A DNA stretch of 64,000 nucleotides from Geobacteraceae bacterium. Lineage in GTDB: Bacteria > Desulfobacterota > Desulfuromonadia > Geobacterales > Pseudopelobacteraceae. Under the pieces are notes generated by a model. It saw only the letters and a program-made list of their open reading frames with translations, was not told the DNA's origin and searched no databases. Shown here in pieces: positions 19,678-36,718 of the stretch (positions within the stretch are counted from its first letter, which is position 1; each line of letters starts with the position of its first letter). Location: assembly GCA_025355325.1 (NCBI GenBank), contig JANXZX010000209.1:73211-137210 (forward strand), read 5' to 3'. The translations under genes were made by a program, and so were the position numbers.

Positions 19678-20694
19678 ATGCTGCGATCCTCAATTTTTTT
19701 GAGCCTGTTGTTTACTCTCATGACATGCCTGTTTCCGGACAGTTCTCCGGCGCTTGAGATCACCCCGTTCCGCACCGCCAACCGCAGCCCCGTTGTACAA
19801 TTGTACGGGATCCCATCCATAACCTCTTCAGACCTGCAACCTATCGGACATTGGGAGTTCAGTCTCAACCAGGACGTCGCCTCAAACTTCAGCGCGAGCT
19901 CAACAACAAACGAAACGATCCTGCTGGATGGGGAGCAGTACCGCTGGGCCTTGAACGGCACCTACGGTCTCACCGATCATCTGGAACTGGGATTTGAAAT
20001 ACCCTTTGAATATCAAACCGGCGGGGGATTTCTGGATGGATTTATTATCAATTGGCACAACACTTTCGGACTCCCGCAAGGGGGTCGCAACACCTACCCC
20101 AAGAACCGCCTGAACTACCGCTACACAAAAAACGGTGTCAATAAACTTGACGTGAGCAAGGAATCGGGCGGCATCGGAGATATGAGCCTGCTGGCCGGCT
20201 ACCGGATTTACACACTCCGTAGCGAACTTGACCATGATACGCTGGCGCTCCGGGCGCAGCTTAAACTGCCCACCGGTAACAGCTCAGAGTTACTGGGAAG
20301 CGGCGGCACCGATCTGTCGCTGTTTATTACCGGCTCTATGAACAGCAAAACCGAATGGGGTACGGTCGGTATTTTTGCCTCGGCCGGGGGAATGTATGGC
20401 AGCGACGGCGATATTTTAAAAGAGCAGCGCCGCAACCTGGCGGGATTTGGAACTGTCGGCATCGGCTTGGCACCGACAAACTGGATTGCCTTCAAGGTTC
20501 AATGCAATTTCAACACACCACTCTTCAAGGAGAGCTCATTACGTGAACTCGGTAAAAATTCTGCGATGTTAACAACCGGCGGCACACTGAAGTTTCCGGG
20601 TGACTACCTGCTGGACATTGGAGTGGGTGAAGACATTGCCGTCGCAACCGCACCTGACGTCACCTTTAACCTGGGAATCAGCAAAAAATTCTGA
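19678..20694 (+). CDS. Putative outer-membrane beta-barrel protein (DUF3187-like, from memory)
   Basis: The 338-aa ORF has a signal peptide, and the mature N-terminus ITPFRTANRSPVVQLYGIP resembles DUF3187. It shows alternating hydrophobic beta-strand patterning and ends in an aromatic residue (ISKKF). Confidence 0.5.
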   Translation: MLRSSIFLSLLFTLMTCLFPDSSPALEITPFRTANRSPVVQLYGIPSITSSDLQPIGHWEFSLNQDVASNFSASSTTNETILLDGEQYRWALNGTYGLTDHLELGFEIPFEYQTGGGFLDGFIINWHNTFGLPQGGRNTYPKNRLNYRYTKNGVNKLDVSKESGGIGDMSLLAGYRIYTLRSELDHDTLALRAQLKLPTGNSSELLGSGGTDLSLFITGSMNSKTEWGTVGIFASAGGMYGSDGDILKEQRRNLAGFGTVGIGLAPTNWIAFKVQCNFNTPLFKESSLRELGKNSAMLTTGGTLKFPGDYLLDIGVGEDIAVATAPDVTFNLGISKKF

Positions 20695-20748: not shown

Positions 20749-21612
20749 CTATTTCACTTTCGCCTGCTTCACAAAACGTTCATGGACACTCGCCAGACTT
20801 GAATAATCAGGATACTTCTGCAGTTGAGCCCGCAGCCTGGCAATACGTTCGCCAAGTGGTGGATGAGTTGAGAACCACGACCCTTTTTTATCTTTACTCG
20901 AAGCCTCCAACCTTTGCAGTTTTTCCAGCACCCTGATCATCGCAGAAGGATCGTACCCGGTGCGGTAGGTCGTTTCCATAGCGGCCAGGTCAGCTTCGAA
21001 CTCCATCTCTTTATCAAGACCCTTGTCAAACAGAACCGTCTGCATATCGCCAATGGCTGAAGCGAATTTCTTCCCTCTTTCTCCACCGACACTTGCGGCG
21101 GTGATTGTTCCGACACCCTGAATGAGCTGGGCGCGCTGAGTACTTTTCAACGCATGCTTTGCCGACACATGGCCGACTTCGTGGGCAAGGACGGCCGCCA
21201 GCTCGGCTTCATCATTCAGAATAGCAAGCAACGCGCGACTGATGAAAATCACCCCACCGGGAACGGCAAAGGCGTTTTGAACAGAACTGTCCAACACGGC
21301 AAACTGATAGTGAATCGTCGAACGTTTGCTGTTGGCAGCAACCGCTGTTCCTACCAGATTGACATACTTCTGCAATGATTCGTTAGCTACCGGCGACCCA
21401 AACCGCTGCAGGCCTTCCAGCGCAAGGCTTTCTCCAATAGCCCGCTCAGTCTTGTAATCGATCTCCTTCGAACTTGATAAAACCTGGGTCGCTCCGGAAA
21501 AAATTTTACCCTCTTTCGATTCCGGATCAAGAATGGCTTCAAAAAATCCGGCAGAAGCGGACGTGGCTAAAATAGAAAGAAGTAACAATGCCGTACATAA
21601 GAGTGATTTCAT
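20749..21612 (-). CDS. Secreted M48-family zinc metalloprotease
   Basis: The 287-aa ORF has a signal peptide ending LATSASA and the HEVGH zinc motif (LAHEVGHVSAKH). Its ATG overlaps the stop of the upstream SH3 gene (ATGA). Confidence 0.85.
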   Translation of the reverse strand: MKSLLCTALLLLSILATSASAGFFEAILDPESKEGKIFSGATQVLSSSKEIDYKTERAIGESLALEGLQRFGSPVANESLQKYVNLVGTAVAANSKRSTIHYQFAVLDSSVQNAFAVPGGVIFISRALLAILNDEAELAAVLAHEVGHVSAKHALKSTQRAQLIQGVGTITAASVGGERGKKFASAIGDMQTVLFDKGLDKEMEFEADLAAMETTYRTGYDPSAMIRVLEKLQRLEASSKDKKGSWFSTHPPLGERIARLRAQLQKYPDYSSLASVHERFVKQAKVK

Positions 21613-22139
21613 TGTTTACCCCCTTGAACCTGGGCGTACTCGCCGATTTTTCCCTCTTTCAGAAAAGTCTTCAGTTCATTGTCACTGACTTTACGCGCCA
21701 GTATGGCATCAACAGCTTTCTTATACTTCTCCGGAGTGCCGCGACCTTTGGCATACGCATCCGCTTCGGGAGAAAGGCCGCGGATACTACGGGCACTGTC
21801 AGCTTTTGCCGTGTTGATCTGACTCTTTTGCATGGAGTCGCCAAAAAGACCACCGTCACCACCGGTAACCTCGGCAGCCGGTGCCGTATCAGAAACACGC
21901 CCTGCGTACACCCACCCTTCCTTGCCGGAAGCTATCCTGACTTTCAGCCAGCGCCCCCCTGACTCAAGAACCGTAAGCTCTGTACCAACCAGGACATCGG
22001 CAACATTGTCGGATGTGGCTGAAGCTTCTGCTTTCAGCGCTGTTCCTTCACTGGATACCCAGCGTTTTTCCTCAGCCATTACTGTAACAGCAAACAGCAA
22101 CAGGGCCAATACTGCGGCCATACTACGCGAAACTTTCAT
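21609..22139 (-). CDS. Secreted bacterial SH3-domain protein
   Basis: The 176-aa ORF has a signal peptide. The SH3b-like core is ALKAEASATSDNVADVLVGTELTVLESGGRWLKVRIASGKEGWVYAGRV. Confidence 0.7.
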   Translation of the reverse strand: MKVSRSMAAVLALLLFAVTVMAEEKRWVSSEGTALKAEASATSDNVADVLVGTELTVLESGGRWLKVRIASGKEGWVYAGRVSDTAPAAEVTGGDGGLFGDSMQKSQINTAKADSARSIRGLSPEADAYAKGRGTPEKYKKAVDAILARKVSDNELKTFLKEGKIGEYAQVQGGKQ

Positions 22140-22167
22140 CGTACCCTCCCCTTTATTTGACTGCTTA

Positions 22168-25100
22168 CTACTGATAATCTCCGGTCAAAACGAACGCCCC
22201 CCAATATCCCGGATGAGGATAGCGGTTTTTTACATGCTGCATCGCGCGGGTCAAACTCTCCGATTTACCGTACGTCATGTAATTGCGGTAGAACTGCTTC
22301 ATCATAATCGCTGTAGATACATCGCTGACCCGCCAAAGGCTCGACATCAGCGAATGAGTGCCGGCAAAGATGAATGCCCGGTTCATTCCGACCACATCGT
22401 CACCGCTCCGGATATCTCCGAGCCCGGTCTGACAGGCGCTCAACACAACCAGATCTGCCCGGATATCAAGACCGAAAACCTCTTCCGCCTGAAGCTTGCC
22501 GTCAGCCTTGTTATCCTTTGTCAAACGGATGGCGGAGAAAAGCGGATTGACCGGATCAAACTCGCCGTGGGATGCCAGATGAATCACGCCGAACTCACTG
22601 ATATGCTCCCTCACCCAACTCTCGGTGGCACGCTCGCGGGTCAGGGTCGTCACATCCGGATAATTCCAGCGAAGCGTACCCGCTTCACGTTCGGCAAACG
22701 GAAGATCAAGCGCAGAATTTCCCAGGTCAGGATTGCCGATTGCCAAAACCCGCAGATTCTTGTTCTGCTGACGGCGCGCCAGCGTATATTTCAGCACCGA
22801 TGCTGCCGGGAGATAAAACAGCTTCTGCCGGTCAACCAGATAATCGCGGCCATCGCTTAAGGTAGCAAACGCCAGATAATGGAGACTGCCGTGCGGGATG
22901 ATTCCGACCGAACGGAGCGAACCGCTGCCTGCCAGCGGAGCGGCTACCAGCAGGTCATACAGTTCGCGTGACTGTTTTTCCAGCGGCTCCAGATTTTGCA
23001 GCATCCGGCGATAGGACGAAATTTTCGCCGCCAGTTCCTTTGCCGGAATATTCTGAATGATCAGTTTTGCCTGGTCATGATCGATCTTCCAGCAGAGCAG
23101 ACGGTCCGGCAGCTGATAGTACGAAAGCAGCACAACACCCGGTTCAAGCAGTTTGCGTACATCGTCAAGCGTAGTCGGACTCACCTTCACCAGGGCGAGC
23201 AGATCGGGACGCTTACGTTCGATATCAATCAGCAGATCCTGGTACTCCGCCTGCAGCCTTTGCAGCGCGTCGCTATACCGCGCCCGTTCCTTCGGATTCA
23301 CCGCCTGAACCGACAGACTTTCCTGCTCAAGAATCTGCTCCTTCAAGCGGTTCTGATGATCATACAACTCCTGATTCACCGCCCCGGACAGCGACAACCG
23401 CTGGCGGCCAAGAATATCAATCAGGCTGCGGGAACGGGAACGTTCAGCAACGGCAAACGCTTCATCGCTTCGCTTCAGATCAACCAGCAGACTGACCAGA
23501 CCGGAATAGACATCCATCTTGTCGGCGAGGAAACCGTCCTTCAACTGATCCAGCTTGATCTCGGCACGCAGGCCTTCAACCGTTTCCAGAGCCTGCTGAT
23601 AAGAAGCAACAGCTTTGAGCGAATCGCCAGCCAGATTCTGCAACCGGGCAAGTCCAAGCAGTGCCCGCCAGCGTACTTCGCGCAGCAACAGCGCATCGGC
23701 AATTTCAAGCGCCTTCCGGTAACTTGCTTCGGCCACCGCTGCCTGTTTCAACTCCGCTTCGGCGTCGCCGCGAGCGAGATAAATCTTGGCAAGATTGACC
23801 TTATCACCAATATCCGTCGCCATTCCGGCAGCCTCGGAAAACTGTAGCAGCGCGGCTGACGCATCCCCCATCTTCAGGCGGGTCTGCCCGAGATTTCGCA
23901 GATCATAGGCCATCGCCCAGCGGGAGCCGAGCTTCCGGTCTATCTCCAACGCTTTTTCAAGGGTCGCCAGCGCTGCAGTGTACTCCCTCGACTCTCGCTG
24001 AACCAGACCGATATTGTTTAGCGTCGTCGCAACCTCATCGCGCCTGACCGCCAGTTTTTCAGCCCGAACCAGCGCACCGCGAAGTTCAAGCTGGGCCCGT
24101 TTGTTGTCGCCAAGCGTCCACCAGATCAGACCGCCGGTGTTCTTTGCCATAACCTGTTCGAGTGGCCATTTTTCCGCCAGAGCAGCTTTTTCCACCTGCT
24201 CACGCAAATCAAACGCTTCCTGATATCGTCCCTGAAACCAGGCATTATTCGCCTGTTCCAGCACAATCCGCATTTTCGTGCGTAGATCCTTTGTGCCCAC
24301 TATTGCCAGCGCATCGGTATAAAACTTGTCGGCAGCCGGAAAATTACCCAGCAGTCGCTGGCAGCGTCCCCGTTCAAGAAGGGTTTCGGCTTCCAGCGGA
24401 GCATTGCTGACTTTACGGTAGATTTCCCCCGCCTGGCCATAATATTGGGCCGCAACGGCATACTGGTTGAGGCGCAGGTCATAAATGCGGCCAAGATTCC
24501 GATACTGCTCAGCCAACGAGACGTCATCCTTCAACGTCCGGCGCAGACCGGCAGCTTCCTCGAAAAAAGTCCTGGCCGCACTGAAGTTAACCGCATTTTC
24601 CATTACAACACCGAAATCAGCCAGTGCCGCCGCCTCTTCTTTTGCCATGCCCAGCTCGGTAAAAATGCCGACTCCTTCTTTCAGAGAAACCGCCGCCTCG
24701 GCAAAGCGTTCGGCATTTCCCTGCAAAAGTCCAAGGCGAAGCAGTGCATCGGCATGGTCAGCCGAGTATGGTTTTTCTTTCGCCAGTCCCTTGACCAGCG
24801 CCTCGGCATGAACTATCGCCCGGTCGGTGAAACCGGCGGCAAAAGCACTTTCACGGGCATAGCGGTGCAGTGTGGTGCGCTGCTTTGACAGCGACGGATT
24901 CTCTTCAATAATAACAAGGGCGTTTTCAAAGTGAGAGAGCGCTTTGGCAAATAAACCGGCATTGTGAGCCTGAACCCCGGCTTTGCCGTATTCGGTGAAC
25001 CGGCTTTTGCCAAGTTTGGCGGCCTCCACCGCATCCGGTCCCCAGTCTCCGATCAGCAGCCAGCCGGGCTGAAGTTTCTTCCGGGCATCGCCAAGCGCTG

Positions 25101-28100
25101 CACTGGCATATGCTTCGGTAAATCCTTTCGAATCGCCCGGTACTCCGCCGTCCAGCAGCAGCGACGGCACACCAAGCAGCGTTGCAAAATGCCCCAGACT
25201 GTAAGCCTGTTGCAGACCGGCGCGTGGTGCGACAAGTAGCGAGAGATTATCAGCCGCAGTCAATTCGGATAACGGATGACGCAGACCTTTATCATCCTCC
25301 CACAACGGCAGCGCATACCCGCTGCCGCCTGGAAGTGACGGGACTTCCGGCAGCAGACCGGCCCGGAAGGGAAGCACCAGGGTATGGGCATCGGCAAGCC
25401 GTCCGGTCATCGGGATAGTCGGTAATTTCGAGAAAGGTGCACCACCCTGCCACCAGCCGGTCGTATCAAGTATCTGGCGGCGGAACGGCTTGCGCAGAGA
25501 AACAGACTGAACCAACTGACAGGCGCTTAATCCCCAGCTGATTACCGGAGCGGCGATGAAGCGGGAAGGATCTTCATAGGCTGCCAGAACCGGCGGAACT
25601 GCGGCGAGACGGGCATCGAGCGTCGGTTTGGTAACCGTTTCAGCAATAATCTTCCCTTTGCCGTCAACCGTAAAGAGCAGCCAGCGCACAGCATCAAGCG
25701 GCGTAAAGCGCAGCAGCGTTCTGCCCGGCAGATTTTCCACTACGTCGATGAGTTCAATCGACTGCGGGGAAATGAGGCGACAGAGCCTTCCTCCTTTTCC
25801 GGAAGCACATTCTTTGTTGAACAACTGTTGCAGAGTGCTGAAGCGCTGCTGAGCACCTTTCAAGGTCTCGGCGCGGGAAGGTGTTTCGTCACTTGACCGG
25901 GAAATAACCCCCAGATCAACCGATGCCGCAGCCAGTCGGATCCCCGTATCTCCGGCAAAGCGGTAAAAAGTGGGAATTCGTTCCAGTTTGGCGCCAAACA
26001 GATCGTCAATAATCGCCTGCTCCTGCTGAAGTCGCAGCTGCAGGTAGTCTTTATCCGCTGTTGCAGCTTTGGCAACCGCACCACGCAGACGGTCGATTTC
26101 GGCAAGATGGGGCGCCGCAGCGCGGAACTGACCGAGCGTCGCCGGATCGTTAAGGCCGAGCGCACCGCGACCGAGAACCTGTACCCGCTCCAGTTCGCTC
26201 ATCTTTTCCAGCAGGGCAAACGCCTGTTCGGGATTTTTGGCGGCGAGTTTCTCCAGATAGGGCGCAAAGCGCTCCATGATCTCACCCTTTTGCAGGTCAA
26301 ACTCCGTCAGCGGCAGCTTCTCAAGCTGTGCCAGAGCTTCATCATAGCGGCCAAGCGCCGTAATTGCCCGCCATTCAAGTGCAGACGCCGCAGCAGTTCC
26401 GGCTTCTTCACGCGCAGCGTTCAGAGCTGTTTCAGCAGCATCGGACAGACCGAGCGCCGTAAGTACTGCGCCACGATTTAGCTGAGCAACCACCCGTTGA
26501 CGGTGCTGCTGATGCAGCAGGTCCCGATCACTACTGTCCGCAGCCGTAAGCAGCGTCCGGTCCCAATGTTCCAAAGCTTTAAATAATAGTGCCTGCCGAC
26601 CACCATCATCGGCGACAGATGGAGCCAGGCGAGCCAGCAGCGTTCCGGCATCATTATGATAGCGGCCATAGACGAGCGGCGGAAGAGCCGTACGGGATGT
26701 GTCCGCCAGCCGTGAGACGCGCGCCTCGGCGGCCAGATAGTCGCCTGTGTCAGCCGGTATTTCCCCGGCAGTCAACAGTTGCCCCCAGTTAATCAGATTG
26801 AGCATGGCACTGATCGGATTGCCGGACTGCAGCGAAAGGATCGTTGAACGCTGAAAATCACGCGCTGAATTTTCCCGGTCACCCAACGCATAATCAATAT
26901 GAGCGATGCGGTGTGAAAGCAGCGTAACGCCATACAGATCTTTGACGGCAATTTTTTTGATGTCAGACGGATAGCGATTCAGCTGATTCTTGAGCAAAAC
27001 CAAAGCTGTTGACGGGTCACCCAATTCCGATTGAATGCGGGCCAGATACGTCTCGGCCAGTCGTTTTTCCTGCTCGGCAGTGAAGCCGAAAGCGGCATCG
27101 GTGGAGCCCCCCTTGTCAAGAGAAACAGTTGCCGATATTTCCACCAGACCACCGCTCCGTTTTGCCGGTGTCTTGGACTTGGGCGGATTTTTTTCAATGA
27201 GTATCAACAGATCACTAAACCCGTCCCGGCTCAAGCGGAGCAACCGCTGCTGTTCCTCACCGGATGCCGCGTGAGCTTCCTTGTACGCGGCTATACTGGC
27301 TGAACGCCGATTTGAGGCAAGATTACCGGTAAAACCGAGCCCCTGATTCAGTTTGAAAGCTTCATCAAAATGTTCGCGGGCTGCGGAATAGCGATCAGCT
27401 TCAAGATACGCCAGACCGAGTCGGTCATGAATCTCTGCAGTCGTTTCCACCAGACGCGGAACTGAGTCCAGCTCCTTTTCCACCGCAGTTGCCATAGAGT
27501 TAAGCTCAGAAAGGAATTTGACGGCATCCTTGTGCCAGGAAGGGGCAGACTTGAGAAGCGCACGTTGCCGCTCCAGCAGACTTCGCAGCGTCTTGTCAAA
27601 ACCGGTCCAGGCGGCTGATGGCGGGGCTTCGGGAGGCACAGTTCCGAGCCGGTCGAGTTCGGCGCTAATCGCCTGATGCTCGTTAAGCGCTGCTTCTGCG
27701 CTCGTACTTCGCCCCGTTCCGGAAAAGAGACGTTCTACGACACGCCGCGACAGCTTCCCGAACAGATCAAGCGGCCGGGACGGGTTCAGGCGGTCCTCTG
27801 ACAGTTTAAGCGCCCTGAGATAACCGGTGATCGGCGCTTCTTTTTCGCGCATTTGAAATGCAACTGCCGCGTAGCGCTGCTGAAAAATCAGTTCAGTTTC
27901 CGGATTGTCGAACGGAATCTTTGCGGCGAGTCTTTCGCTGTAAAACTTCCAGGCGGTTGCCTTGCTGCCAAGCAGATACGCAATATTGCCGATATTAAGA
28001 TTCAGGTTGGCACGATTTTCCGGCTGTTCCACCGGCCGGTTGAGCAGCCAGGCGCGGCGGTAGAGCGCGAGCGCCCGTTCCAACCCGCCCCTCTCGCCAT

Positions 28101-30519
28101 GTACCGTCTCGGCAACTTCGGCAAGATATCCGCGTGTCTGGGGAGGATATTCCGAAGAGGGCATCCGGTCAGCGGCGCGGGCAATCAGCCGGTCTGCTTC
28201 ATCAAAGCTCTCTTTTCCCGGCAGATACGTGAGCGTCAACCCGGTTGCATAAAGAAGCACCGGATCATCAGGGGAGGAACTCAGCAGTTTACGGTACAGG
28301 TCAAGCAACTCTTGAGTCTGCCCCATCGCGGCAACCGATTTAATGTAGCCCCGGTGTGCCTCAATACTCCGCCCGTCATAACGAATGAGGTCGAGAAAGA
28401 TCGACCGTGCAGCAGCAACTTCCCCGAGACGGTACAGATTTTCACCAGCCGCAACCGTTTTGCGAATGTAGGCGGCCCGGGCCAGTTGATACAGTGGTGT
28501 ATCTTCCGGCTGTTCACTCATCTCTGTTTCGTAGAGCGCCTTGGCCTCCCCATAGCGCTCTTCACGATACAGCACTTCTGCCAGCGCAAAACGCGCCGCC
28601 GCGGTCGGCGTTGCCACTCTCGGGAACTTTTCCAGAACCGTGCGGTAGGCATCCTTGGCCTTAGCCCATTCGTTGGCCCGATACGCCGTGTCACCCTGAC
28701 GATTCCAGGCACCCATTGCCAGACGTGGAAGAATCGTTCGGTAGCGTTCCGCCAGCGCCGAAAGCGCCATCAGATCAGAACGGTCAGGGGGCGAAACCTG
28801 ATCCAGAATGGCGGATATTGCAGCCTCAGCCCATTCCTCCTGATCATCGTACGTGGCGGCAACATCAACCAGTGCTTTGAGTGCCCCCTCCCCTTTTTCC
28901 AGTTTTGCCAGCAGAACAGCCCGCCGCAAAGCAGCTTCCGCCTTCAGAGGGCGGCTGGCATCCTGCAACCGGGCAACCTGTTCGGCCAGTCCGGCTGCGG
29001 TCAGCAAATCGGCAGCTCCGCCGCCAAAATCGGCAAGAAGCCGCGCGTTGTCGATCAAATACCGTGCCGCAGCATCGGCGCCTTTACCCGCCGCAGCAGT
29101 TTTCATCGCCTGCTCCGCCTGGCGGATCAGCTCCTGACGCCGCTGCCCCGACGCAACGTCGCCGCAGCGCTGTGCTGTCCGTACCCTGATCCGGGCAATA
29201 CCTGCCAGGGCTGCTTCACGGGGAAAACTGGAGTAGCGACGTACAATCGCTGCATACTGTTCTTCTGCCTGTGCCATTTCTCCGGACTGTTCCATTAATC
29301 CAGCCAGTGCAAGGCCTGCCAAAGCACCTTCAAGTGTCGGCGCATCCTCCCGGGCCAGAACACGGGCAGACGCAAGACGGGCATGGGCCGGATCCGGCGG
29401 TTGACGTTCCAGAAGGATTTTTGCCAGCGCCCACTGGTCGGCAACGGTCGGGCGTTCCGGTATTTCGCCGGATGCGGGGAGGGACATGACCTGTCCACCA
29501 CCGGCCAGACCGGCGACGAAGTAAAAATGATCGCCCGCCGGGAGCGGCGCCACCGCCATCAGTGCGGCAGACGTAAGCGGTGCAACAAACGGGAGGCCGT
29601 CATCGCCACTGCGTTTAAAATGCAGCCGGTGGATCTGCCCCGACTCCTGCCCGGTTGCAGCATTTCCCCCAACCGCAGACTGGCGGGTGAAAAGAAGGGT
29701 ATCAGCACTTTCCCAGGCCGGATACAGATCGCGTTCAGCACCACTGGTCAGCTTTGTAAGCTGCCCGCCCTGCTCATTCCACATCCAGAGATCACCATTC
29801 GGATCTGACTTTCGCGACACAAATACCCATTTTTTTCCGTCCGGCGAAGGGGCCGCAAATGCCGCATCAATATCAATCGGCAGTTTTTCACTCCGGTTAT
29901 CCGCGAGGTTGAACAGTACCAGCTCACGTTGAGCTGCCCCCGGCATCAGGCGTTGATACACCACAGATTCACCGTCAACAGTAAATACCGGCGCATCGTC
30001 GGCGGATTCCCGACCGGTCAGTTTTTTGGGTTGCTCATCTGACTTTACAATATTTATCAGCCAGATATCACCCTTTACATCATCCTCTGCATCAACATAT
30101 GCAACCTGAGTTCCGGTAGAATTAAGAGCGGGAGCGGCGAGTCTAACCGGACTGGTATGGAGCAGGCGCGGCAATTCCGGAACTGCGCCAAACGAGTAGA
30201 GCCACAGTTCATCCCCCTTGTCACCACGCTCGACGGTAACCATCCGTGAACCATTTGCAGAGCGGCTGACATACAGAACCTGACGGGAGCTGAAAATTGC
30301 CGGCTGCGGCACAAGCTCGGGTCGGGAGCGAGGTGCTGAACGGGGTATGGCCGGGGCCAACAGCTCATCACCCAGCGGCAGCGCCACCGCAGGGAAGGAG
30401 CAGACAAACAACATCAGTACAAGTAAAAGCGCTTTAAAGCAGCTTCCCAGAATATAATCCCCCCTCCCTTGACGGGAGGGGGTTAGGGGGTGGGTGAAGC
30501 TGCAACATGGCATCTTCAT
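22168..30519 (-). CDS. Giant secreted protein: PD40/TolB-like beta-propeller + ~2000 aa of TPR repeats + C-terminal CHAT (caspase-like) protease domain
   Basis: The open frame is uninterrupted from 30627 and the start is ambiguous: 30627, ATG 30519 or 30513, or ATG 30414. The h-region FKALLLVLMLFVCSFPAVA|LP looks like a signal peptide. PD40 motifs are present (SPDGKKWVFVSRKSDPNGDLWMWN). The CHAT hallmarks are IHLASHGEF (His codon 22567-22569) and VLSACQTG (Cys codon 22432-22434). Confidence 0.85.
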   Translation of the reverse strand: MKMPCCSFTHPLTPSRQGRGDYILGSCFKALLLVLMLFVCSFPAVALPLGDELLAPAIPRSAPRSRPELVPQPAIFSSRQVLYVSRSANGSRMVTVERGDKGDELWLYSFGAVPELPRLLHTSPVRLAAPALNSTGTQVAYVDAEDDVKGDIWLINIVKSDEQPKKLTGRESADDAPVFTVDGESVVYQRLMPGAAQRELVLFNLADNRSEKLPIDIDAAFAAPSPDGKKWVFVSRKSDPNGDLWMWNEQGGQLTKLTSGAERDLYPAWESADTLLFTRQSAVGGNAATGQESGQIHRLHFKRSGDDGLPFVAPLTSAALMAVAPLPAGDHFYFVAGLAGGGQVMSLPASGEIPERPTVADQWALAKILLERQPPDPAHARLASARVLAREDAPTLEGALAGLALAGLMEQSGEMAQAEEQYAAIVRRYSSFPREAALAGIARIRVRTAQRCGDVASGQRRQELIRQAEQAMKTAAAGKGADAAARYLIDNARLLADFGGGAADLLTAAGLAEQVARLQDASRPLKAEAALRRAVLLAKLEKGEGALKALVDVAATYDDQEEWAEAAISAILDQVSPPDRSDLMALSALAERYRTILPRLAMGAWNRQGDTAYRANEWAKAKDAYRTVLEKFPRVATPTAAARFALAEVLYREERYGEAKALYETEMSEQPEDTPLYQLARAAYIRKTVAAGENLYRLGEVAAARSIFLDLIRYDGRSIEAHRGYIKSVAAMGQTQELLDLYRKLLSSSPDDPVLLYATGLTLTYLPGKESFDEADRLIARAADRMPSSEYPPQTRGYLAEVAETVHGERGGLERALALYRRAWLLNRPVEQPENRANLNLNIGNIAYLLGSKATAWKFYSERLAAKIPFDNPETELIFQQRYAAVAFQMREKEAPITGYLRALKLSEDRLNPSRPLDLFGKLSRRVVERLFSGTGRSTSAEAALNEHQAISAELDRLGTVPPEAPPSAAWTGFDKTLRSLLERQRALLKSAPSWHKDAVKFLSELNSMATAVEKELDSVPRLVETTAEIHDRLGLAYLEADRYSAAREHFDEAFKLNQGLGFTGNLASNRRSASIAAYKEAHAASGEEQQRLLRLSRDGFSDLLILIEKNPPKSKTPAKRSGGLVEISATVSLDKGGSTDAAFGFTAEQEKRLAETYLARIQSELGDPSTALVLLKNQLNRYPSDIKKIAVKDLYGVTLLSHRIAHIDYALGDRENSARDFQRSTILSLQSGNPISAMLNLINWGQLLTAGEIPADTGDYLAAEARVSRLADTSRTALPPLVYGRYHNDAGTLLARLAPSVADDGGRQALLFKALEHWDRTLLTAADSSDRDLLHQQHRQRVVAQLNRGAVLTALGLSDAAETALNAAREEAGTAAASALEWRAITALGRYDEALAQLEKLPLTEFDLQKGEIMERFAPYLEKLAAKNPEQAFALLEKMSELERVQVLGRGALGLNDPATLGQFRAAAPHLAEIDRLRGAVAKAATADKDYLQLRLQQEQAIIDDLFGAKLERIPTFYRFAGDTGIRLAAASVDLGVISRSSDETPSRAETLKGAQQRFSTLQQLFNKECASGKGGRLCRLISPQSIELIDVVENLPGRTLLRFTPLDAVRWLLFTVDGKGKIIAETVTKPTLDARLAAVPPVLAAYEDPSRFIAAPVISWGLSACQLVQSVSLRKPFRRQILDTTGWWQGGAPFSKLPTIPMTGRLADAHTLVLPFRAGLLPEVPSLPGGSGYALPLWEDDKGLRHPLSELTAADNLSLLVAPRAGLQQAYSLGHFATLLGVPSLLLDGGVPGDSKGFTEAYASAALGDARKKLQPGWLLIGDWGPDAVEAAKLGKSRFTEYGKAGVQAHNAGLFAKALSHFENALVIIEENPSLSKQRTTLHRYARESAFAAGFTDRAIVHAEALVKGLAKEKPYSADHADALLRLGLLQGNAERFAEAAVSLKEGVGIFTELGMAKEEAAALADFGVVMENAVNFSAARTFFEEAAGLRRTLKDDVSLAEQYRNLGRIYDLRLNQYAVAAQYYGQAGEIYRKVSNAPLEAETLLERGRCQRLLGNFPAADKFYTDALAIVGTKDLRTKMRIVLEQANNAWFQGRYQEAFDLREQVEKAALAEKWPLEQVMAKNTGGLIWWTLGDNKRAQLELRGALVRAEKLAVRRDEVATTLNNIGLVQRESREYTAALATLEKALEIDRKLGSRWAMAYDLRNLGQTRLKMGDASAALLQFSEAAGMATDIGDKVNLAKIYLARGDAEAELKQAAVAEASYRKALEIADALLLREVRWRALLGLARLQNLAGDSLKAVASYQQALETVEGLRAEIKLDQLKDGFLADKMDVYSGLVSLLVDLKRSDEAFAVAERSRSRSLIDILGRQRLSLSGAVNQELYDHQNRLKEQILEQESLSVQAVNPKERARYSDALQRLQAEYQDLLIDIERKRPDLLALVKVSPTTLDDVRKLLEPGVVLLSYYQLPDRLLCWKIDHDQAKLIIQNIPAKELAAKISSYRRMLQNLEPLEKQSRELYDLLVAAPLAGSGSLRSVGIIPHGSLHYLAFATLSDGRDYLVDRQKLFYLPAASVLKYTLARRQQNKNLRVLAIGNPDLGNSALDLPFAEREAGTLRWNYPDVTTLTRERATESWVREHISEFGVIHLASHGEFDPVNPLFSAIRLTKDNKADGKLQAEEVFGLDIRADLVVLSACQTGLGDIRSGDDVVGMNRAFIFAGTHSLMSSLWRVSDVSTAIMMKQFYRNYMTYGKSESLTRAMQHVKNRYPHPGYWGAFVLTGDYQ

Positions 30520-30566
30520 TGCAATCTTCCCGCCCACCCTAACCCTCCCCCGCCAGTGGGGAGGGG
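30459..30566. repeat. Pair of inverted REP-like GC-rich elements (each about 36 bp with an internal hairpin)
   Basis: The left unit is CCCCCCTCCCTTGACGGGAGGGGGTTAGGGGGTGGGTG. The right unit is CGCCCACCCTAACCCTCCCCCGCCAGTGGGGAGGGG. The two are near reverse complements of each other and are separated by about 34 bp. This GGGAGGGG/TTAGGGTGGG type of element is a common intergenic repeat in many bacteria. Confidence 0.7.
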
Positions 30567-30611
30567 ACTTTTTTTGTTGTGAGTGTGTATTATTGAATGT
30601 CCGGTTCCGGT

Positions 30612-31214
30612 TCATAGCAGTATCCACGCGCCGCCAGCCTCCTGCACCTTGGTGCCGGGGGCACTGTTCTGACGGTTGATTTTGGCAAATACCTTGCGGA
30701 TAGCCGGGATATCCTTGCTCGTAAAGTTTTCATTAGTCTGCACAACCCGCATCATCAGCACGTCCCGCGACTGATTGACCTCCTTCACGACCTGCTGGAA
30801 CTCGGCTTCGCTGTAATTGGCGGCAAATGACTTCAGCTCCACAGACGTAACCTTGGGGGTTTCGCGGGTAAATGGAGTCAAGAGCCCTTCCTGATTTTCG
30901 CCAATCCAGCCGAAACGCTTGAAAGTTTCGATATCGTCGGCATGAAAAGCGATAGTTTCCAGAGCCCTGGTGGCATCAGCCTGCTCAGGAGTATGACGGG
31001 GAGGAGCATCGATCTTACCGGTCGGGGACACGCCCCGCACCGATGCCACCAGCAGCATATCCTCATTGAGGCTGTTATAGGTCCCGAGCACCTGATTTTC
31101 CAGTGAGGTTCGCTCGCTGACGACATTGACATCAACCTTGGCAAGGGTACAGCCGGATACAAATAAAGCCAGGCCGAGGGTCGTCAATCGGATGGCAAAT
31201 GATCTATTGTGCAT
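30612..31214 (-). CDS. Lipoprotein with DUF1318/YdbL-like C-terminal half
   Basis: The 200-aa ORF has a lipobox, LFVSGC. The C-terminal half (GWIGENQEGLL ... VNQSRDVLMMRVV ... IRKVFAKINRQNSAPGTKVQEAGGAW) follows the YdbL/DUF1318 pattern as I remember it. It overlaps the upstream giant gene by 11 nt. Confidence 0.5.
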   Translation of the reverse strand: MHNRSFAIRLTTLGLALFVSGCTLAKVDVNVVSERTSLENQVLGTYNSLNEDMLLVASVRGVSPTGKIDAPPRHTPEQADATRALETIAFHADDIETFKRFGWIGENQEGLLTPFTRETPKVTSVELKSFAANYSEAEFQQVVKEVNQSRDVLMMRVVQTNENFTSKDIPAIRKVFAKINRQNSAPGTKVQEAGGAWILL

Positions 31215-34200
31215 ATATCCTCCGTTTCAATGAAAGTTCACCTTTTGGACCAATAATCAGGGTATCGGCCCGTACCAGATCAAGAAGGCCACGTAATGCC
31301 ATGATTCCCGCTTTGTTCTTTTGCAGTTCCTGACGAAGCGGCAGCTCGGAAATACGCAGACGCTCCACCTTTGGCAGTTCTACTTCAACCCCCTTGATGT
31401 ACGCCTCACCCTCCATGCTGAAGGCGCCGTCAACCGCCCGGGCACGCAATCCTTTCAAACCGCCCAGCCGCAACATTTTCCGCTGAGCCACTACCTGCTC
31501 ATTTCGCTCATATGGATCAAGAGCAAATAGAGCCCTCTCGATCATATCAGCTCCGATTTTACGCACATTCAAAGCCAGCCGCAACTGTTCAAACAGTTCG
31601 CGCTGCTCGGTCGTCAGCGGTGCGGTAAAACTCATTTCTCCGGTAATTTCAGCGTTCTGATTCGTGCGCTGTTTTCCGGCATCTTTCGGCAGTAGATACG
31701 TAATATCAAGGTTTGAAAATGAACCGGCGGTCGTAATCGCCGGAATCTCCGGAAGCAGATCAATAATTCCGCGCGCGAGAAGCGTTCCTCCCAGCAGATC
31801 CGCCTGAAAAAAGCTGAGACCGGTTTTTTCCTGTGTGAAGAGCAAATCGCCCTCCAGCGCGGTGAGTTCCAGCGGCACTCCGGACGCTTTGGTCGTGACG
31901 CGCTGGATTGAAAATGAACGGACCCCGTGAATATCGCCGCGCAGATCTTCGTTGATTCGTCCGGCAATTTCCAGGGCACCGGGATTGGCCGTCACAGCCG
32001 CTACCGGTCGGATAAGGGCCGCAGAAAGCGGAGCCCATCCCCCGCCTTTAACCGCTGCCAGGGCATATACCCGATTAAAGGTGATATCGGATCGCACCCC
32101 TTCAACTGTGGTTCCGTTGGCAAGCCGAACATCAAAATCCCTCGTCTGTACCGCACTGCGCAGCGCAAGTTCGCGGCCGGCACTGAGATCAATCCGTGTA
32201 CTGCTGCCGACACTGCCCGCTACGGAAATGCCGGGCAAGAGCTGCCGTAATTCCCGCGAAAACGCGCCGTCAACAGTGGCAAACAGGGTGGCGTCAAGTC
32301 GTTTGATCAATGTCGCCGGGTTGAATGGTTCTTTTTCATCGAGCAGCGCATCGATTCGACTGACGCTCAACTCGGCCTCCTGCGAAATTGCCAGCGGATC
32401 GATCCGCAGCTGTTCGTTCAGGAAAAACTCATTCCCTCCGCTGAATACGCCGTCGAATGTCAGTTTACCATGCTGGGTGGGTAATTTACCGGCAGTTCCC
32501 GAAAGGCCGGTCACTCCGGAGAACCGTACTGCACCCTCTATTCCGGCCGAATCTCCGTTCTTGGTCGAATACATTCGTACATCCGGCCCGGTGCGCAGAC
32601 CCGTTACGGTTATCTCCCCTTTCGCAGACGGAACTGTTGCCGAGACATTATCAAGCTTTACACCAAATTCCAGTTTGTCAAACAATGCCATTCCGGTCCT
32701 GGCACTGCGCAACGGATTTTTATCAAATGCCGGCGCTTTTTCCGGCAGCGGTGCGGCGAGATCCCAGACCACTCCCATTTTGCCGTCTGCCTTCATACCG
32801 GATGGAACAAAGGAGGCGCCGAATTTCAGCGCGCGTTTCAGGTCAAGCTGTACAGTGCCGCTGGTAGCGGCACGCTGGGGAGATGTGCCCGAAAGAGACG
32901 CCCCGGCGGTAATACGGAGGAAATCACCCGCCGAGACTGAGGCCGATGCTTTCTGGACAGAAGGCTTCGCTCCTTTGACGGCAGGAAGGCGGAGCGAGGC
33001 TGTAGTAAGAGAAGCGGAAAGCGGAATCGGGCCAAATTTCCTCCCGGACTGTATTCCCTGCATTGAGCCGGCGGTTACGGAAAACTCGGGAAGATTGGCT
33101 TCAATGTCGCCATTCTCGGCGGCACGTGCCAGAAGGCGGAGCTGTTCGTGGACATTTTCAACCGTCAGCCGTTTTTCAAGCGAAAGTCGATCCAGATCGA
33201 ATGTTTGGGTGATTGTTGCGGAAGCGGAAACCTTGCGCGGTGAGGCGCTTTTCAGATTGAGATCCGTCACCGCAAGTACGGCTTTTCCCCGAGCGCCACG
33301 AACAGAGAGTGATTGGGTGCCGGAAATCGCTGCATCCCTGATGCTCCAGAGCAGATCCGTCGTCAGTTTTGTCGGCATGTTGCCGGATAATGGGCAGGTC
33401 AACGTTTCAATAATAACTTCACTATTGTTCGCCGTCAGTTCCCCCGCTTTAAGTGCCATTCGAACTCGCGGGAGCGTAATGCCAAAGCCGGAGAGTTTGG
33501 CATCGCCCTGATTTTTGGGACCAATCAGGTGCAGTGACAGAGTGCGAAGAAATACTTCACCGGCAAGATCTTTAACGGGCATTCCGGGGGGGATAAAAGG
33601 GGCAGCAACTGCCAGCGCCCGGGAAAGATCAATGCGCAGCGGACCGAAGGTTATGTCCAGCGTGCGTTCCGGAACTGACGGACGGTTGACGGAAGCGCTC
33701 CACGCGGCGGTAATCAAGCCGGGCATGGCAATGGAGCCGCCCGGGAAATCAACCCGCTGGGCTTTATGATCGGCGGCAATCTGCTGCTGTAGCTTCACCT
33801 CAAGCGGCCCGACCCGTTTTGCTTTCAGCGAACCGCCGCTTGCTGCCAGTCCTGTGCCGTCAACAGTCAGCGCAGCATGCAGATCATTATTCGTATCGGT
33901 TTTTGCCCGCAGCTGAACGTCAATATTACCATCAAGCTTCGGCACGGCAGGCGACAAAAACGGATGAGCAACCGCCAGCAGCCCAGGCAGGTTCAGCTTC
34001 AGGCGGGCAATAAAACCGTCAGCCTGACTGAGTCCGCCTGACAGGGTAACACTTGTTCCGGGCGCCGCCACTTCGACGGCAAAGAGTGCCGAGGCAAGAT
34101 GAATCCTCTGCACATTGGTCACAAGGTCACTAACCGTGGCATTGAGACTGACGTTACCCATCTCACGGCCATCGACCGTCACCCTCCCCTTCACCTCAGC

Positions 34201-34800
34201 CGTAATCGGCTTGGCGGCCAGCGACGGCATCGCGAAACGAAGGGAGAAATCCTGCAACTGCAGCTGCTTTCCCGGCACCCGATACACAACGTTCAGCGGT
34301 GCCGCATCAACCTTAACACGCAGATCAACCGGCAACGCATAATCAAGTTTCTGGATACGCTGGATCGACTCAGCCAGCATGGTCAATGGATCTTTGGTCG
34401 GAGGAGGCGGTTTTTTCGGACCGGGAGCAAGTTCGGCCCGGACATTTCGTATCCGCACCGTGAGGTCGATGCCGAAACGCCCGTCAACTCCGCTACCGAA
34501 AGAAGGGACAATTACTATCTGATCGATATTTGTTTTAAGAAGCGGTGCGGGACCGTCACCAAGGGTAAGTCCGGAGAGAGTCAGGCCGCCTAACCAGGTC
34601 AGGTCAAAATGTGACCAGGCCACCCGGCGTTTCAAAGAGGAAGAAAGTGCCTGTTGAATCCGGCTCTGTGCACTGTTGCTGCTGATGAATGCAGGGAGGA
34701 AGGCGACGCAAACCAGCAACAACAGCATGGTGCCGACCAGAACCAGCGAGATGATTTTGAGGGCGCATTTGATATGTATGTTACGAATAAATGTAATCAT
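31204..34800 (-). CDS. Large AsmA-family / YdbH-like envelope protein
   Basis: The 1198-aa ORF has a single N-terminal TM anchor (IISLVLVGTMLLLLVCVAFLPAF). A long beta-rich, low-complexity body typical of AsmA/TamB/YdbH-type proteins follows. It is paired with a YdbL-like lipoprotein, as in E. coli ydbH-ynbE-ydbL. Confidence 0.5.
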   Translation of the reverse strand: MITFIRNIHIKCALKIISLVLVGTMLLLLVCVAFLPAFISSNSAQSRIQQALSSSLKRRVAWSHFDLTWLGGLTLSGLTLGDGPAPLLKTNIDQIVIVPSFGSGVDGRFGIDLTVRIRNVRAELAPGPKKPPPPTKDPLTMLAESIQRIQKLDYALPVDLRVKVDAAPLNVVYRVPGKQLQLQDFSLRFAMPSLAAKPITAEVKGRVTVDGREMGNVSLNATVSDLVTNVQRIHLASALFAVEVAAPGTSVTLSGGLSQADGFIARLKLNLPGLLAVAHPFLSPAVPKLDGNIDVQLRAKTDTNNDLHAALTVDGTGLAASGGSLKAKRVGPLEVKLQQQIAADHKAQRVDFPGGSIAMPGLITAAWSASVNRPSVPERTLDITFGPLRIDLSRALAVAAPFIPPGMPVKDLAGEVFLRTLSLHLIGPKNQGDAKLSGFGITLPRVRMALKAGELTANNSEVIIETLTCPLSGNMPTKLTTDLLWSIRDAAISGTQSLSVRGARGKAVLAVTDLNLKSASPRKVSASATITQTFDLDRLSLEKRLTVENVHEQLRLLARAAENGDIEANLPEFSVTAGSMQGIQSGRKFGPIPLSASLTTASLRLPAVKGAKPSVQKASASVSAGDFLRITAGASLSGTSPQRAATSGTVQLDLKRALKFGASFVPSGMKADGKMGVVWDLAAPLPEKAPAFDKNPLRSARTGMALFDKLEFGVKLDNVSATVPSAKGEITVTGLRTGPDVRMYSTKNGDSAGIEGAVRFSGVTGLSGTAGKLPTQHGKLTFDGVFSGGNEFFLNEQLRIDPLAISQEAELSVSRIDALLDEKEPFNPATLIKRLDATLFATVDGAFSRELRQLLPGISVAGSVGSSTRIDLSAGRELALRSAVQTRDFDVRLANGTTVEGVRSDITFNRVYALAAVKGGGWAPLSAALIRPVAAVTANPGALEIAGRINEDLRGDIHGVRSFSIQRVTTKASGVPLELTALEGDLLFTQEKTGLSFFQADLLGGTLLARGIIDLLPEIPAITTAGSFSNLDITYLLPKDAGKQRTNQNAEITGEMSFTAPLTTEQRELFEQLRLALNVRKIGADMIERALFALDPYERNEQVVAQRKMLRLGGLKGLRARAVDGAFSMEGEAYIKGVEVELPKVERLRISELPLRQELQKNKAGIMALRGLLDLVRADTLIIGPKGELSLKRRIYAQ

Positions 34801-34886: not shown

Positions 34887-35162
34887 TTATTGTTCGACTC
34901 GTTTCTTACTTACTAGAGGATAATTCTCAGGATAAAGAATGCAATTAACATCCAGATCAATATCAAGCTCAGGCCAGTAAAGGTGGTTTTTTGAAGGCAT
35001 TTCAACATGGAGGATTTTCTTTATTGATGCTTCTTGAAACCATGGAAAATGCTCAAACGCCAGAAACAACTCTTGAGTATCAATTAGCATCCAGATTCCA
35101 TTGCACGAAATATTGGTAACTTCAGCTGGGAAAATGTTGGTGCCATGCTGTGCTGATTTCAT
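34887..35162 (-). CDS. DUF2442-family protein (putative antitoxin-like partner)
   Basis: The 91-aa ORF contains FEHFPWFQEASIKKILHVEMPSKNHLYWPELDIDLDVNCIL, which matches the DUF2442 consensus (yP.L..As ... WP.lD.Dl). Confidence 0.7.
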   Translation of the reverse strand: MKSAQHGTNIFPAEVTNISCNGIWMLIDTQELFLAFEHFPWFQEASIKKILHVEMPSKNHLYWPELDIDLDVNCILYPENYPLVSKKRVEQ

Positions 35163-35361
35163 TTTGATGCTCCCTAATAAGGTTGTCTGCCTCGTTTAAT
35201 TCCCTCATTGAAAGCCCATGATTCTGGGCAATCTGTATTTCCGGTTCCAACCAGAACTTGGCTTCTCCGTTACTTGACTGCACGTGAATATGCATTCTTG
35301 GCTCTTCTCTGGAGAAGAAGTAGAAACGAAAACCGGCTTCACGAAAAACGGTTGGACTCAT
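35122..35361 (-). CDS. DUF4160-family protein (putative toxin-like partner)
   Basis: I prefer the ATG at 35361 (MSPTVFREAGFRFYFFSREEPRMHIHVQ...). The sequence matches the DUF4160 consensus (yrfyfys.E...pHvHv). It overlaps the DUF2442 gene. Confidence 0.7.
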   Translation of the reverse strand: MSPTVFREAGFRFYFFSREEPRMHIHVQSSNGEAKFWLEPEIQIAQNHGLSMRELNEADNLIREHQNEISTAWHQHFPS

Positions 35362-35747
35362 TATAGCATATCCCCTTAATTCAACAGCTTTATCATGATA
35401 TACGACCTCAGATATCAATGGTCAATTCATTTATTCAAAATACGGCTGGTGTCGAGATATATGAGAATCTCCTGTGCCCCATTCACAAATAGCCCACCCA
35501 CAGTCAAATATCAAACCCGACTACAATTGGTATACTAGTCCTATACACTGCTTGTTTTCCTGCATAAGTATCATAACTAGCTGTATTTACACACATGAAT
35601 TTCATAAGGGCATACCAGTAGTATCAAGTTTTCATACAGTAAACCGGCCAATGTATGCAAGGAACAACTCTTCAAAGATGCGAGTGATAATAAATTTACT
35701 GTGTATTATCGTATTGTTACTAATTTAATTCAAATAAATTCGAAACT

Positions 35748-35763
35748 TGGCACCAGCAGTGCA
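35748..35763 (+). promoter_or_regulatory. Candidate sigma-54 (RpoN) -24/-12 promoter
   Basis: TGGCACCAGCAGTGCA compared with the consensus TGGCACG-N4-TTGCW. The GG and GC dinucleotides have exact spacing. The site is 55 bp upstream of the first small-protein ATG (35819) and lies in an AT-rich non-coding stretch. Confidence 0.55.
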
Positions 35764-35818
35764 ATAACAAAAGACAAGAGCAATCAAATTCAACAAAGAC
35801 TTTAAATAGGAGGATGTC

Positions 35819-36037
35819 ATGAGAGCACTTATTACCACCATCGTAGGAACATTAGCTCCCGTATCAGCATTTGCAGCATCAGGTATAACTGAAGATAGTG
35901 GAATCTTTGTTTGGATCTTCCTTGGTTTCTTTGCAGTGATAGTAGTTGGACAGATACTTCCTGCAATAATGCTGATGACAGGTCTGGTAAAGGGACTCAC
36001 ATCCAAGACCGAAGTTAAAGCTGACGTAAAAAACTAA
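35819..36037 (+). CDS. Small membrane protein, paralogue 1 (72 aa)
   Basis: A GGAGGA RBS lies 5 nt upstream. A signal-peptide-like N-terminus (…PVSAFA|ASG) is followed by a TM helix, IFVWIFLGFFAVIVVGQILPAIMLMTGLV, and a charged tail. It is paralogous to the next two ORFs. Confidence 0.65.
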   Translation: MRALITTIVGTLAPVSAFAASGITEDSGIFVWIFLGFFAVIVVGQILPAIMLMTGLVKGLTSKTEVKADVKN

Positions 36038-36095
36038 GCCACTTAATTCTACGAACCACAAACTAAACTGATATTACAATAAAAAGGAGATCGCC

Positions 36096-36347: not shown

Positions 36348-36414
36348 GAAAGTTGCCTATATAATTAAATGAAAAGCGGTTAAATCCATCAGAAATCAGT
36401 AACAGGTGGATGTC

Positions 36415-36603: not shown

Positions 36604-36675
36604 TTGTTAAGGTGGGAGTGAGCGGCAGTAAAAGCTAAATCAGGCGGATACGCGAAAATCGAAGAAGTGTAGAAG

Positions 36676-36700
36676 GGCCACCTTAAGGGGTGGCCTTTTT
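36676..36700 (+). terminator. Rho-independent terminator after the small-protein array
   Basis: GGCCACC-TTAAGG-GGTGGCC is followed by TTTTT. Confidence 0.75.
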
Positions 36701-36718
36701 ACTTTGATGATAAATTGA

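Follow-up and report, generated by a model that had tools for sequence, protein, structure and literature searches.

How the bulk flow of phospholipids to the outer membrane via AsmA-like bridges is controlled in Gram-negative bacteria is an open question in the field. To our knowledge, the only regulatory hints on such bridges so far are those of the YdbL chaperone and of DegP turnover in Escherichia coli. In this organism, the AsmA-like protein YdbH, the outer-membrane lipoprotein YnbE and the DUF1318 protein YdbL form and tune an intermembrane phospholipid bridge, the function of which is sensitive to the ratio of YdbL (PMC11126948); DegP degrades the free form of YdbL (PMC13464000). Here, a DNA stretch of 64,000 nucleotides from a Geobacteraceae bacterium (GenBank assembly GCA_025355325.1, contig JANXZX010000209.1, positions 73,211 to 137,210 of the forward strand; in the following, the window) is described, in which a minus-strand string of five co-directional genes fills positions 20749-34800, as given by the listing of open reading frames (ORFs). 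On the basis of sequence comparisons, the five genes are one conserved co-directional envelope cassette. By analogy with known systems, it may represent an intermembrane bridge of the YdbH/YdbL type to which a periplasmic module of proteolytic control is coupled, a reading for which the chances appear about evenly balanced.

The string comprises, all on the minus strand, gene 1 (31204-34800; 1198 aa), which encodes an AsmA-clan repeating-beta-groove protein (in the following, the bridge protein); gene 2 (30612-31214; 200 aa), encoding a DUF1318 (YdbL-like) lipoprotein; gene 3 (22168-30627 for the longest ORF, which has a GTG start), encoding a giant TolB-propeller/TPR/CHAT protein; gene 4 (21609-22139; 176 aa), encoding an SH3_3 protein; and gene 5 (20749-21612; 287 aa), encoding an M48 metalloprotease. 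For the giant two start options exist, namely GTG 30627, leading to 2819 aa, and ATG 30519, leading to 2783 aa. In the window, gene 1 overlaps gene 2 by 11 nt, the giant and SH3 genes are spaced by 28 nt with a strong ribosome-binding site (AAGGGGAGGG) inside the spacer, and the SH3 and M48 genes share an ATGA. The coordinates of the string, the overlaps and the gap had been given in a preliminary description of the locus and were all reproduced from the ORF listing; its statement that every product bears a transmembrane (TM) anchor, a lipobox or a signal peptide was also borne out when the N-terminal sequences were read. Indeed, as judged by direct sequence reading, all five products carry an N-terminal signal (one TM helix, one lipobox and three type-I signal peptides), with cleavage read as ...ALLLVLMLFVCSFPAVA followed by LP in the giant, ...LLLFAVTVMA followed by EE in the SH3 protein and ...LLLLSILATSASA followed by GF in the M48 protein.

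All five genes recur in identical order in three relatives, namely Geomonas paludis, a JGI metagenome-assembled genome (MAG) and an ENA genome, where the bridge protein is 41%, 45% and 71% identical to that of the window, respectively, and the upstream genes are unrelated. A scan of the GTDB species genomes with the lipoprotein alignment gave 162 relatives, and the best 80 of the 162 loci were analysed, the presence of each gene being established by tblastn with the window proteins and distant orthologues and counted among testable loci. The 80 loci belong mainly to Desulfuromonadia (Geobacter, Geomonas, Citrifermentans and Desulfuromonadaceae) and to Desulfobacteria, with one NC10-labelled MAG. 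The AsmA-like gene lies upstream of the lipoprotein gene at 74 of 76 loci and the giant downstream of it at 73 of 79, while the SH3 gene follows the giant at 46 of 52 and the M48 gene is found at 44 of 49. From Desulfuromonadia to Desulfobacteria the gene order is kept at 20-45% bridge identity and within completely different flanks; in most genomes, three of the four junctions have overlapping start and stop codons, the overlap between the lipoprotein and giant genes of the relatives being 4-16 nt. The arrangement is far beyond chance, because the gene order recurs in 80 species-level genomes. That the linkage might fail in related genomes, the outcome that the preliminary description had named as fatal to its proposal, was checked directly: the linkage held in two classes of Desulfobacterota with different flanks.

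The exceptions are informative as to how the genes group. Three loci (L063, L069 and L079) have the bridge and lipoprotein genes only, and the same two genes are seen at L082, where the contig ends 2.5 kb downstream. At L064 the lipoprotein gene occurs without bridge or giant; at L068 it occurs without the giant, and the upstream contig is too short to exclude a bridge gene; at L067 it is accompanied by the giant only, with no bridge gene. In a few genomes, SH3-M48 genes do not directly follow the giant. Finally, at L087 two genes (4072-6861) are found between the giant and the SH3-M48 genes, which are still paired. Because the modules can occur apart, their coupling is strong but not obligatory, and the exception loci make the cassette a modular one, of which the DUF1318 lipoprotein is the common element, or hub. 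The two inserted genes of L087 encode a phosphonate-binding-type protein and a dCache-PAS-GGDEF diguanylate cyclase, so that a regulatory input linked to cyclic di-GMP is possible at this locus. As for genome labels, L014 (lipoprotein 86% identical) is labelled Dongiaceae and P0076 (AsmA-like protein 67% identical) is labelled Steroidobacteraceae, both being close to Geobacter-type genomes; these alpha- and gammaproteobacterial labels are probably binning errors, and the NC10-labelled locus (L076) may reflect either a binning error or horizontal transfer.

The bridge protein has a hydrophobic stretch at residues ~13-38, which is its N-terminal inner-membrane anchor. In its AlphaFold2 (AF2) model, built on a 20-sequence alignment (mean predicted local distance difference test, pLDDT, of 81), a helix at residues 6-39 is followed by ~1,100 residues made up almost entirely of long beta strands with short helices. 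The best Foldseek match of this model in the PDB is the bridge-like lipid-transfer protein LPD-3/BLTP1 (9cap_A; E 1.5e-6, probability 1.0), and ApoB100 and LptD come next; TM-scores are low, as expected of long twisted rods. By sequence, the window protein gives no significant match in Pfam or NCBIfam, the AsmA N-terminus being found at E 0.046 with 13 bits versus a gathering score of 29.8. A HMMER profile search of 1.84 billion protein representatives, clustered at 50% identity, delimited a bridge family of 356 clusters, the distant members of which (n=38, profile E <= 1e-55) match DUF748 (25/38; best 1.4e-19), AsmA (20/38) and YhdP (20/38); in one of them (P0234) the matches fall within the first ~180 residues. 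The predicted beta-groove fold and, indirectly, these matches in distant members place gene 1 in the AsmA-like clan, of which, as far as sequence profiles and the model tell, it is a small separate family. With TamB, YhdP, AsmA and DUF748 proteins and with eukaryotic BLTP1/LPD-3 it has in common the N-terminal TM anchor and the long beta-groove fold, and its length of 1198 aa is close to that of TamB or YhdP; it differs from other AsmA-like proteins in a conserved C-terminal motif of its own (LDPYE.NEQ...) and in giving no match to DUF490 (the TamB C-terminal domain) or AsmA_2. The gene had been called YdbH/AsmA-like, and only the second half of this name stands: PF11739 (DctA-YdbH) does not match the protein even at E <= 10, and hhalign of the 20-sequence profile with E. 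coli YdbH finds no similarity (probability 1.2%), so that the YdbH label is unsupported at the level of the family. The only long low-confidence segment of the model (pLDDT < 50) spans residues 917-959 (window 31924-32052) and holds the family-invariant residues W922, P924, L925, S926, L929, P932, R948 and D952; this conserved and apparently flexible loop is a candidate partner-binding or protease-cleavage site.

The product of gene 2 has the lipobox FVSG followed by C, the lipidated Cys22 being encoded at ~31149-31151, and contains DUF1318 (PF07027) in its C-terminal half (31.0 bits versus a gathering score of 27). It is related to E. coli YdbL by BLASTP (E 7e-5) and by hhalign, in an alignment that covers YdbL residues 26-106, that is, the whole of mature YdbL (E 1e-3). 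Residues E106, N147, R150 and W197 align to YdbL E35, N58, R61 and W104 and are family-invariant in the alignment; in E. coli, E35, N58 and W104 of YdbL have been reported as functionally important (PMC13464000). YdbL is a soluble periplasmic protein of ~90 mature residues, whereas here the DUF1318 domain is lipid-anchored within a 200-aa lipoprotein and is preceded by an extra, largely invariant N-terminal segment of ~70 residues, which amounts to a variant architecture. The segment following the lipidated cysteine (CTLAK.DVNVVSERTSLENQVLGTYN) is invariant across four aligned lipoprotein orthologues, and in its identity to Geomonas the lipoprotein ranks among the highest of the cassette (68%, compared with 72% for the SH3 protein, 71% for the CHAT region and 41% for the AsmA-like protein). 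On these sequence features, the gene 2 product is an outer-membrane-type lipoprotein with a YdbL-like DUF1318 domain. That it might be a YnbE-YdbL fusion was considered and dropped, as BLASTP and hhalign find no similarity to YnbE beyond the lipobox and the N-terminal part is not YnbE-like by either method. Sequence searches of the PDB with the lipoprotein profile and with the giant gave chance matches or generic TPR matches only.

The giant is built, from its N-terminus onwards, of a signal peptide, a TolB-type beta-propeller, a region of TPR-like helical repeats ~2,100 residues long and, finally, a CHAT domain. Its homologues open with a short classical signal peptide (M..RRQRGVLIL...ATA followed by LPLGDELLAPA), present in all those examined, and their precomputed Pfam matches are Tricorn_N/PD40, TPR and CHAT. 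The propeller is encoded at 29470-30282 of the minus strand, corresponding to residues ~80-350 counted from ATG 30519. Profile matches in this region are weak (TolB 3.8e-8, Gmad1 and PD40); in an AF2 model of the N-terminal 520 residues, with a mean pLDDT of 71 from a 3-sequence alignment, the top 17 Foldseek matches in the PDB are all TolB, with root-mean-square deviations of 3.3-3.4 Å over ~240 columns (e.g. 2w8b_B, TolB-Pal: E 2.5e-11, 3.4 Å over 244 columns). The N-terminal domain is, thus, predicted with moderate model confidence to be a six-bladed TolB-type propeller. The propeller domain of TolB binds the outer-membrane lipoprotein Pal, and the arrangement of the giant recalls the TolB-Pal system with CpoB/YbgF in that the fold is that of TolB, TPR follow it (many Pfam matches, with a weak one to YbgF at E 0.0017) and an outer-membrane lipoprotein gene adjoins. 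In contrast to TolB, no N-terminal TolA-binding domain was found, and identity as a TolB orthologue is rejected by the score (TIGR02800, 32.7 bits versus a cut-off of 343) and by the lack of tolQRA/pal neighbours in the window and the loci examined.

The CHAT protease domain of the giant (PF12770, E 5.4e-57) is encoded at 22177-22974 of the minus strand, with the catalytic His in the motif ASHGEF (22558-22575), while LSACQTG (22423-22443) contains the catalytic Cys. Across 14 giant orthologues from Geobacter-type genomes, Desulfobacterales and one 'NC10'-labelled MAG, no variation is seen in ASHG and LSACQTGLG; judged by sequence, the catalytic motifs are intact. No TM helix and no anti-sigma domain was detected in the giant. 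CHAT proteases had been said to be otherwise known from cytoplasmic contexts, which is contradicted by DdvA, an anti-sigma factor of Myxococcus xanthus with a solved periplasmic TPR-CHAT domain (PMC11506125). In DdvA, in Csx29 and in the giant alike, a TPR array is followed by CHAT with a His/Cys dyad; the giant differs from the other two in being soluble, about three times longer and preceded by the TolB-type propeller, and in having neither a sigma factor nor a CRISPR or CBASS partner, its neighbours being of the envelope-biogenesis type. The Csx29 model matches the giant (E 1.5e-11) at 43.9 bits versus a cut-off of 300, and no CRISPR-associated genes occur among the annotated neighbours in the window and the loci examined, so that identity as a Type III-E Craspase was discarded.

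The two remaining products are smaller. The SH3 protein (PF08239, SH3_3, E 1.5e-9; TIGR04211, YgiM-like, E 4e-8) is small and exported, with a conserved helical C-terminal half, and, among the matches listed in a homologue search, only close relatives were found. The product of gene 5 matches PF01435 (Peptidase_M48) at E 3e-35 and carries the HEVGH motif (21169-21183, minus strand) as well as EFEAD with the downstream Glu (20989-21003, minus strand). Its best, partial NCBIfam matches are to BepA (3.6e-24; 85 bits versus a cut-off of 570) and LoiP (8.6e-19; 68 versus 365), which act on outer-membrane biogenesis intermediates. With both it shares the M48 fold, HExxH with the downstream Glu, and export; it differs from BepA in having no C-terminal TPR domain, the TPR repeats of the cassette being found in the separate giant, and from LoiP in having a type-I signal peptide without a lipobox. 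Equivalence to either was, therefore, rejected, the scores being far below both family cut-offs and neither TPR nor lipobox being present. From its sequence, the gene 5 product is a BepA/LoiP-type zinc metalloprotease of the M48 family, soluble and periplasmic. Among the domain calls of the preliminary description, those of DUF1318, SH3_3, M48, CHAT, TPR and the propeller were all upheld by profile searches.

When the locus is compared with ydbH-ynbE-ydbL as a whole, both have an AsmA-clan beta-groove gene immediately upstream of, and overlapping, the gene of a small exported partner, both include a DUF1318 domain, here with equivalents of the key residues E35, N58 and W104, and both sets include an outer-membrane lipoprotein. 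They differ in the size of the bridge protein (1198 aa versus 879 aa of YdbH) and in the three further genes attached here, those of the giant TolB-TPR-CHAT protein, the SH3 protein and the M48 protease. Full-text literature searches found no paper describing the five-gene combination, in agreement with the earlier impression that it was undescribed; since genes 1 and 2 repeat the known ydbH-ynbE-ydbL theme, the novelty lies solely in the modules being joined. The cassette lies within the AsmA-like clan and the DUF1318, CHAT and M48 families, and outside the YdbH family and the TolB, Craspase and BepA/LoiP equivalogs.

The sequences themselves show the gene order with its conservation, the domain identities, the export signals and the intact catalytic motifs. 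From the above analogies we infer a working scheme that extends to physical interaction, lipid transport, substrates and the direction of regulation, in which a single operon would serve two modules sharing the hub lipoprotein. In the first module, the bridge protein and the DUF1318 lipoprotein would form or cap an intermembrane bridge moving phospholipid between the inner and outer membranes, as in YdbH-YnbE-YdbL, the 1198-aa bridge protein probably being able to dispense with a beta-strand extension of the YnbE kind. In the second, the giant, the SH3 protein and the M48 protease would be a periplasmic proteolytic and scaffolding unit. The giant might dock at the outer-membrane end of the bridge, its propeller binding a lipoprotein as TolB binds Pal, and its helical repeats serving as sensor or scaffold; CHAT and M48 could then cleave bridge components or nearby envelope proteins in a regulated manner, or control their quality, and thereby determine how many active bridges there are and in what stoichiometry, comparable to the tuning of the E. 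coli bridge by DegP turnover of YdbL and by the YdbL:YnbE ratio. A surveillance or proteolytic-remodelling role of the cassette, already suggested as speculation in the preliminary description, is plausible. A bolder version, which we regard as rather unlikely, makes the giant a periplasmic caspase machine sitting on the lipid bridge, whose propeller would bind the lipoprotein at the outer membrane, whose repeats would sense the state of the envelope (such as the width of the periplasm, an imbalance of lipids or a bridge that has stalled), and whose CHAT domain would, together with M48 and the SH3 adaptor, cleave the bridge or its cap and thereby switch phospholipid flow on or off. If true, an AsmA-like lipid transporter would for the first time have a proteolytic switch dedicated to it, and a bacterial CHAT protease its first housekeeping role in the envelope.

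Several points weigh against a YdbH/YdbL-type bridge under proteolytic control. The cassette has no YnbE equivalent, nor any gene for a YnbE-like beta-strand lipoprotein, and the 11-nt overlap of genes 1 and 2 leaves no room for a small ynbE-like ORF; the bridge protein shows no similarity to YdbH by hhalign and its own Pfam match is insignificant; and the propeller model (pLDDT 71) was built on a 3-sequence alignment. Moreover, the SH3 gene does not directly follow the giant at 6 of 52 testable loci, several Desulfobacterales genomes have bridge and lipoprotein with no giant, L067 is without a bridge gene, and a stable pair of hairpins resembling repetitive extragenic palindromic (REP) elements between the lipoprotein and the giant could attenuate read-through in the window. 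Some of these same facts may be read as signs of two or three independent envelope units (bridge and lipoprotein; giant; SH3 and M48), adjacent by inherited synteny with no functional coupling: the sub-modules do occur separately, two unrelated genes part the giant from SH3-M48 at L087, and the REP pair stands between genes 2 and 3 in the window. Inherited adjacency is, however, difficult to reconcile with an order kept from Desulfuromonadia to Desulfobacteria at such low bridge identity while the flanks are wholly different, with start/stop overlaps at most junctions, and with a lipoprotein that pairs with either module, all of which make independence improbable.

Two further explanations concern the giant itself. 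It could be the ligand-activated, caspase-like sensor of a periplasmic sensing or conflict system directed at proteins of invaders or competitors, after the manner of DdvA or Craspase, with M48 and/or the AsmA-like protein as downstream effectors, for example by membrane damage or an abortive response. TPR-CHAT proteins are indeed signal-activated proteases in defence settings, the giant matches Csx29, DdvA is periplasmic, and the cassette adjoins an islet of three toxin-antitoxin-type pairs in the window and a CcdAB pair in L004. Yet sensor proteins of conflict systems are expected to diversify, whereas CHAT and the lipoprotein are strongly conserved (50-90% identity), in a cassette that is itself highly conserved, found mainly in one phylum and located beside housekeeping genes such as that of aconitase B; sigma or anti-sigma factors and nuclease partners are absent, and PADLOC finds no defence-system match, only a generic TPR model on the giant, so that a defence-island reading is unsupported by it. 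A sensing or conflict role appears, on balance, very unlikely, and the same grade applies to a role of the giant as cargo, with the AsmA-like protein and the lipoprotein assisting in the export, insertion or surface display of the giant or of other proteins (as in TamB-TamA or GspN) and with SH3 and M48 as maturation factors. AsmA-like proteins do have reported roles beyond lipid transport: TamB acts in outer-membrane protein assembly. GspN is reported to move lipoproteins to the cell surface (PMC12439988). The tight translational coupling of the lipoprotein and giant genes in relatives would also suit a cargo; against it stand the giant itself, which ends in CHAT and in which no beta-barrel, autotransporter or lipid-anchor feature was found, the bridge and lipoprotein pairs without a giant in several genomes, and the giant and lipoprotein without a bridge at L067.

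Under the preferred reading, that of a phospholipid bridge coupled to proteolytic control, the interest of the cassette is that an AsmA-clan bridge and a lipid-anchored YdbL-like protein are hard-wired to a pair of exported proteases and to a TPR scaffold of very large size. This joining, conserved phylum-wide, makes it a natural system for asking about proteolytic control of such bridges, and it should be open to experiment because cultured hosts (Geomonas and Citrifermentans) carry it. With the cassette, the AsmA clan also gains a new family and DUF1318 a new architecture, and the CHAT caspase-like proteases are extended to a conserved and apparently housekeeping envelope setting.

The G-rich REP-like hairpin pair of the window forms one long inverted repeat at 30451-30574, between the lipoprotein stop and the core of the giant signal peptide, with arms at 30451-30499 and 30526-30574 and hairpins at 30462-30480 and 30543-30565. 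The pattern is counted twice against 0.02 expected by chance. Folded as RNA, the pair reaches -81.5 kcal/mol (z = -4.5) and has ATG 30519 in its apical loop; of the two hairpins, the second alone is terminator-like on the minus strand, and its U-tail is weak. The frame is open from GTG 30627 (MDTAMN; MGNPMN in Geomonas) across both arms to the signal peptide, and the related MAG protein P0220 (81% identity) has the same REP-encoded peptide, in frame, in its called N-terminus. At L001, L003 and L004 the pair is missing and the lipoprotein and giant genes overlap; as this is the state of most relatives, the pair is a lineage-specific insertion and not an ancestral operon boundary. REP-like hairpins (CCCTCCC-N3-9-GGGAGGG), usually paired, are repeatedly found at the junctions flanking the DUF1318 lipoprotein gene in several related genomes (L013 255-357 and 1020-1122; L018 10620-10723; L037 7945-8041; L041 9819-9837; L044 10623-10725; L047 9546-9567 and 10666-10687). 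Within an operon, REPs located between cistrons can confer different mRNA stabilities, and for this reason those found here may tune the ratio of lipoprotein to giant. In Geomonas a REP pair lies inside the intact giant ORF (L045, Geomonas oryzae, 14536-14631; near 14500-14600 in L046, L051 and L053), where it adds ~35-40 in-frame residues to a variable loop of the helical repeat region, resembling, like the in-frame pair at the N-terminus of the giant in the window and in P0220, the in-frame insertions of palindromic elements known from Rickettsia.

As regards the flanks, the window cassette has aconitase B on one side and, on the other, a low-GC toxin-antitoxin islet followed by a DbpA helicase gene. 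The plus-strand gene at 19678-20694 encodes a DUF3187 outer-membrane-type protein (PF11383, E 5.6e-79); it is convergent with the string, and 54 nt lie between it and the M48 stop. Its identity and orientation agree with the preliminary description; as a sixth member of the cassette it was rejected, because in two close relatives M48 directly adjoins aconitase B (acnB) with no DUF3187 gene between, and from this comparison it looks like a single-gene insertion in the window lineage. The islet upstream of the cassette (34887-38685; GC 39-44% versus ~55%) holds the three toxin-antitoxin-type pairs mentioned above, namely DUF4160/DUF2442, TumE/HVO_A0114-like, and a PIN toxin with a small upstream ORF; the CcdAB pair of L004 is at the equivalent upstream position. 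Three tandem small ORFs of the plus strand (35819-36037, 36096-36347 and 36406-36603) encode similar hydrophobic proteins of 65-83 aa, which give no significant Pfam match (one matches Tetraspanin at E 0.008, below the cut-off); each has a signal-like N-terminus and one further TM segment, and together they may be a small paralogous family of membrane peptides.

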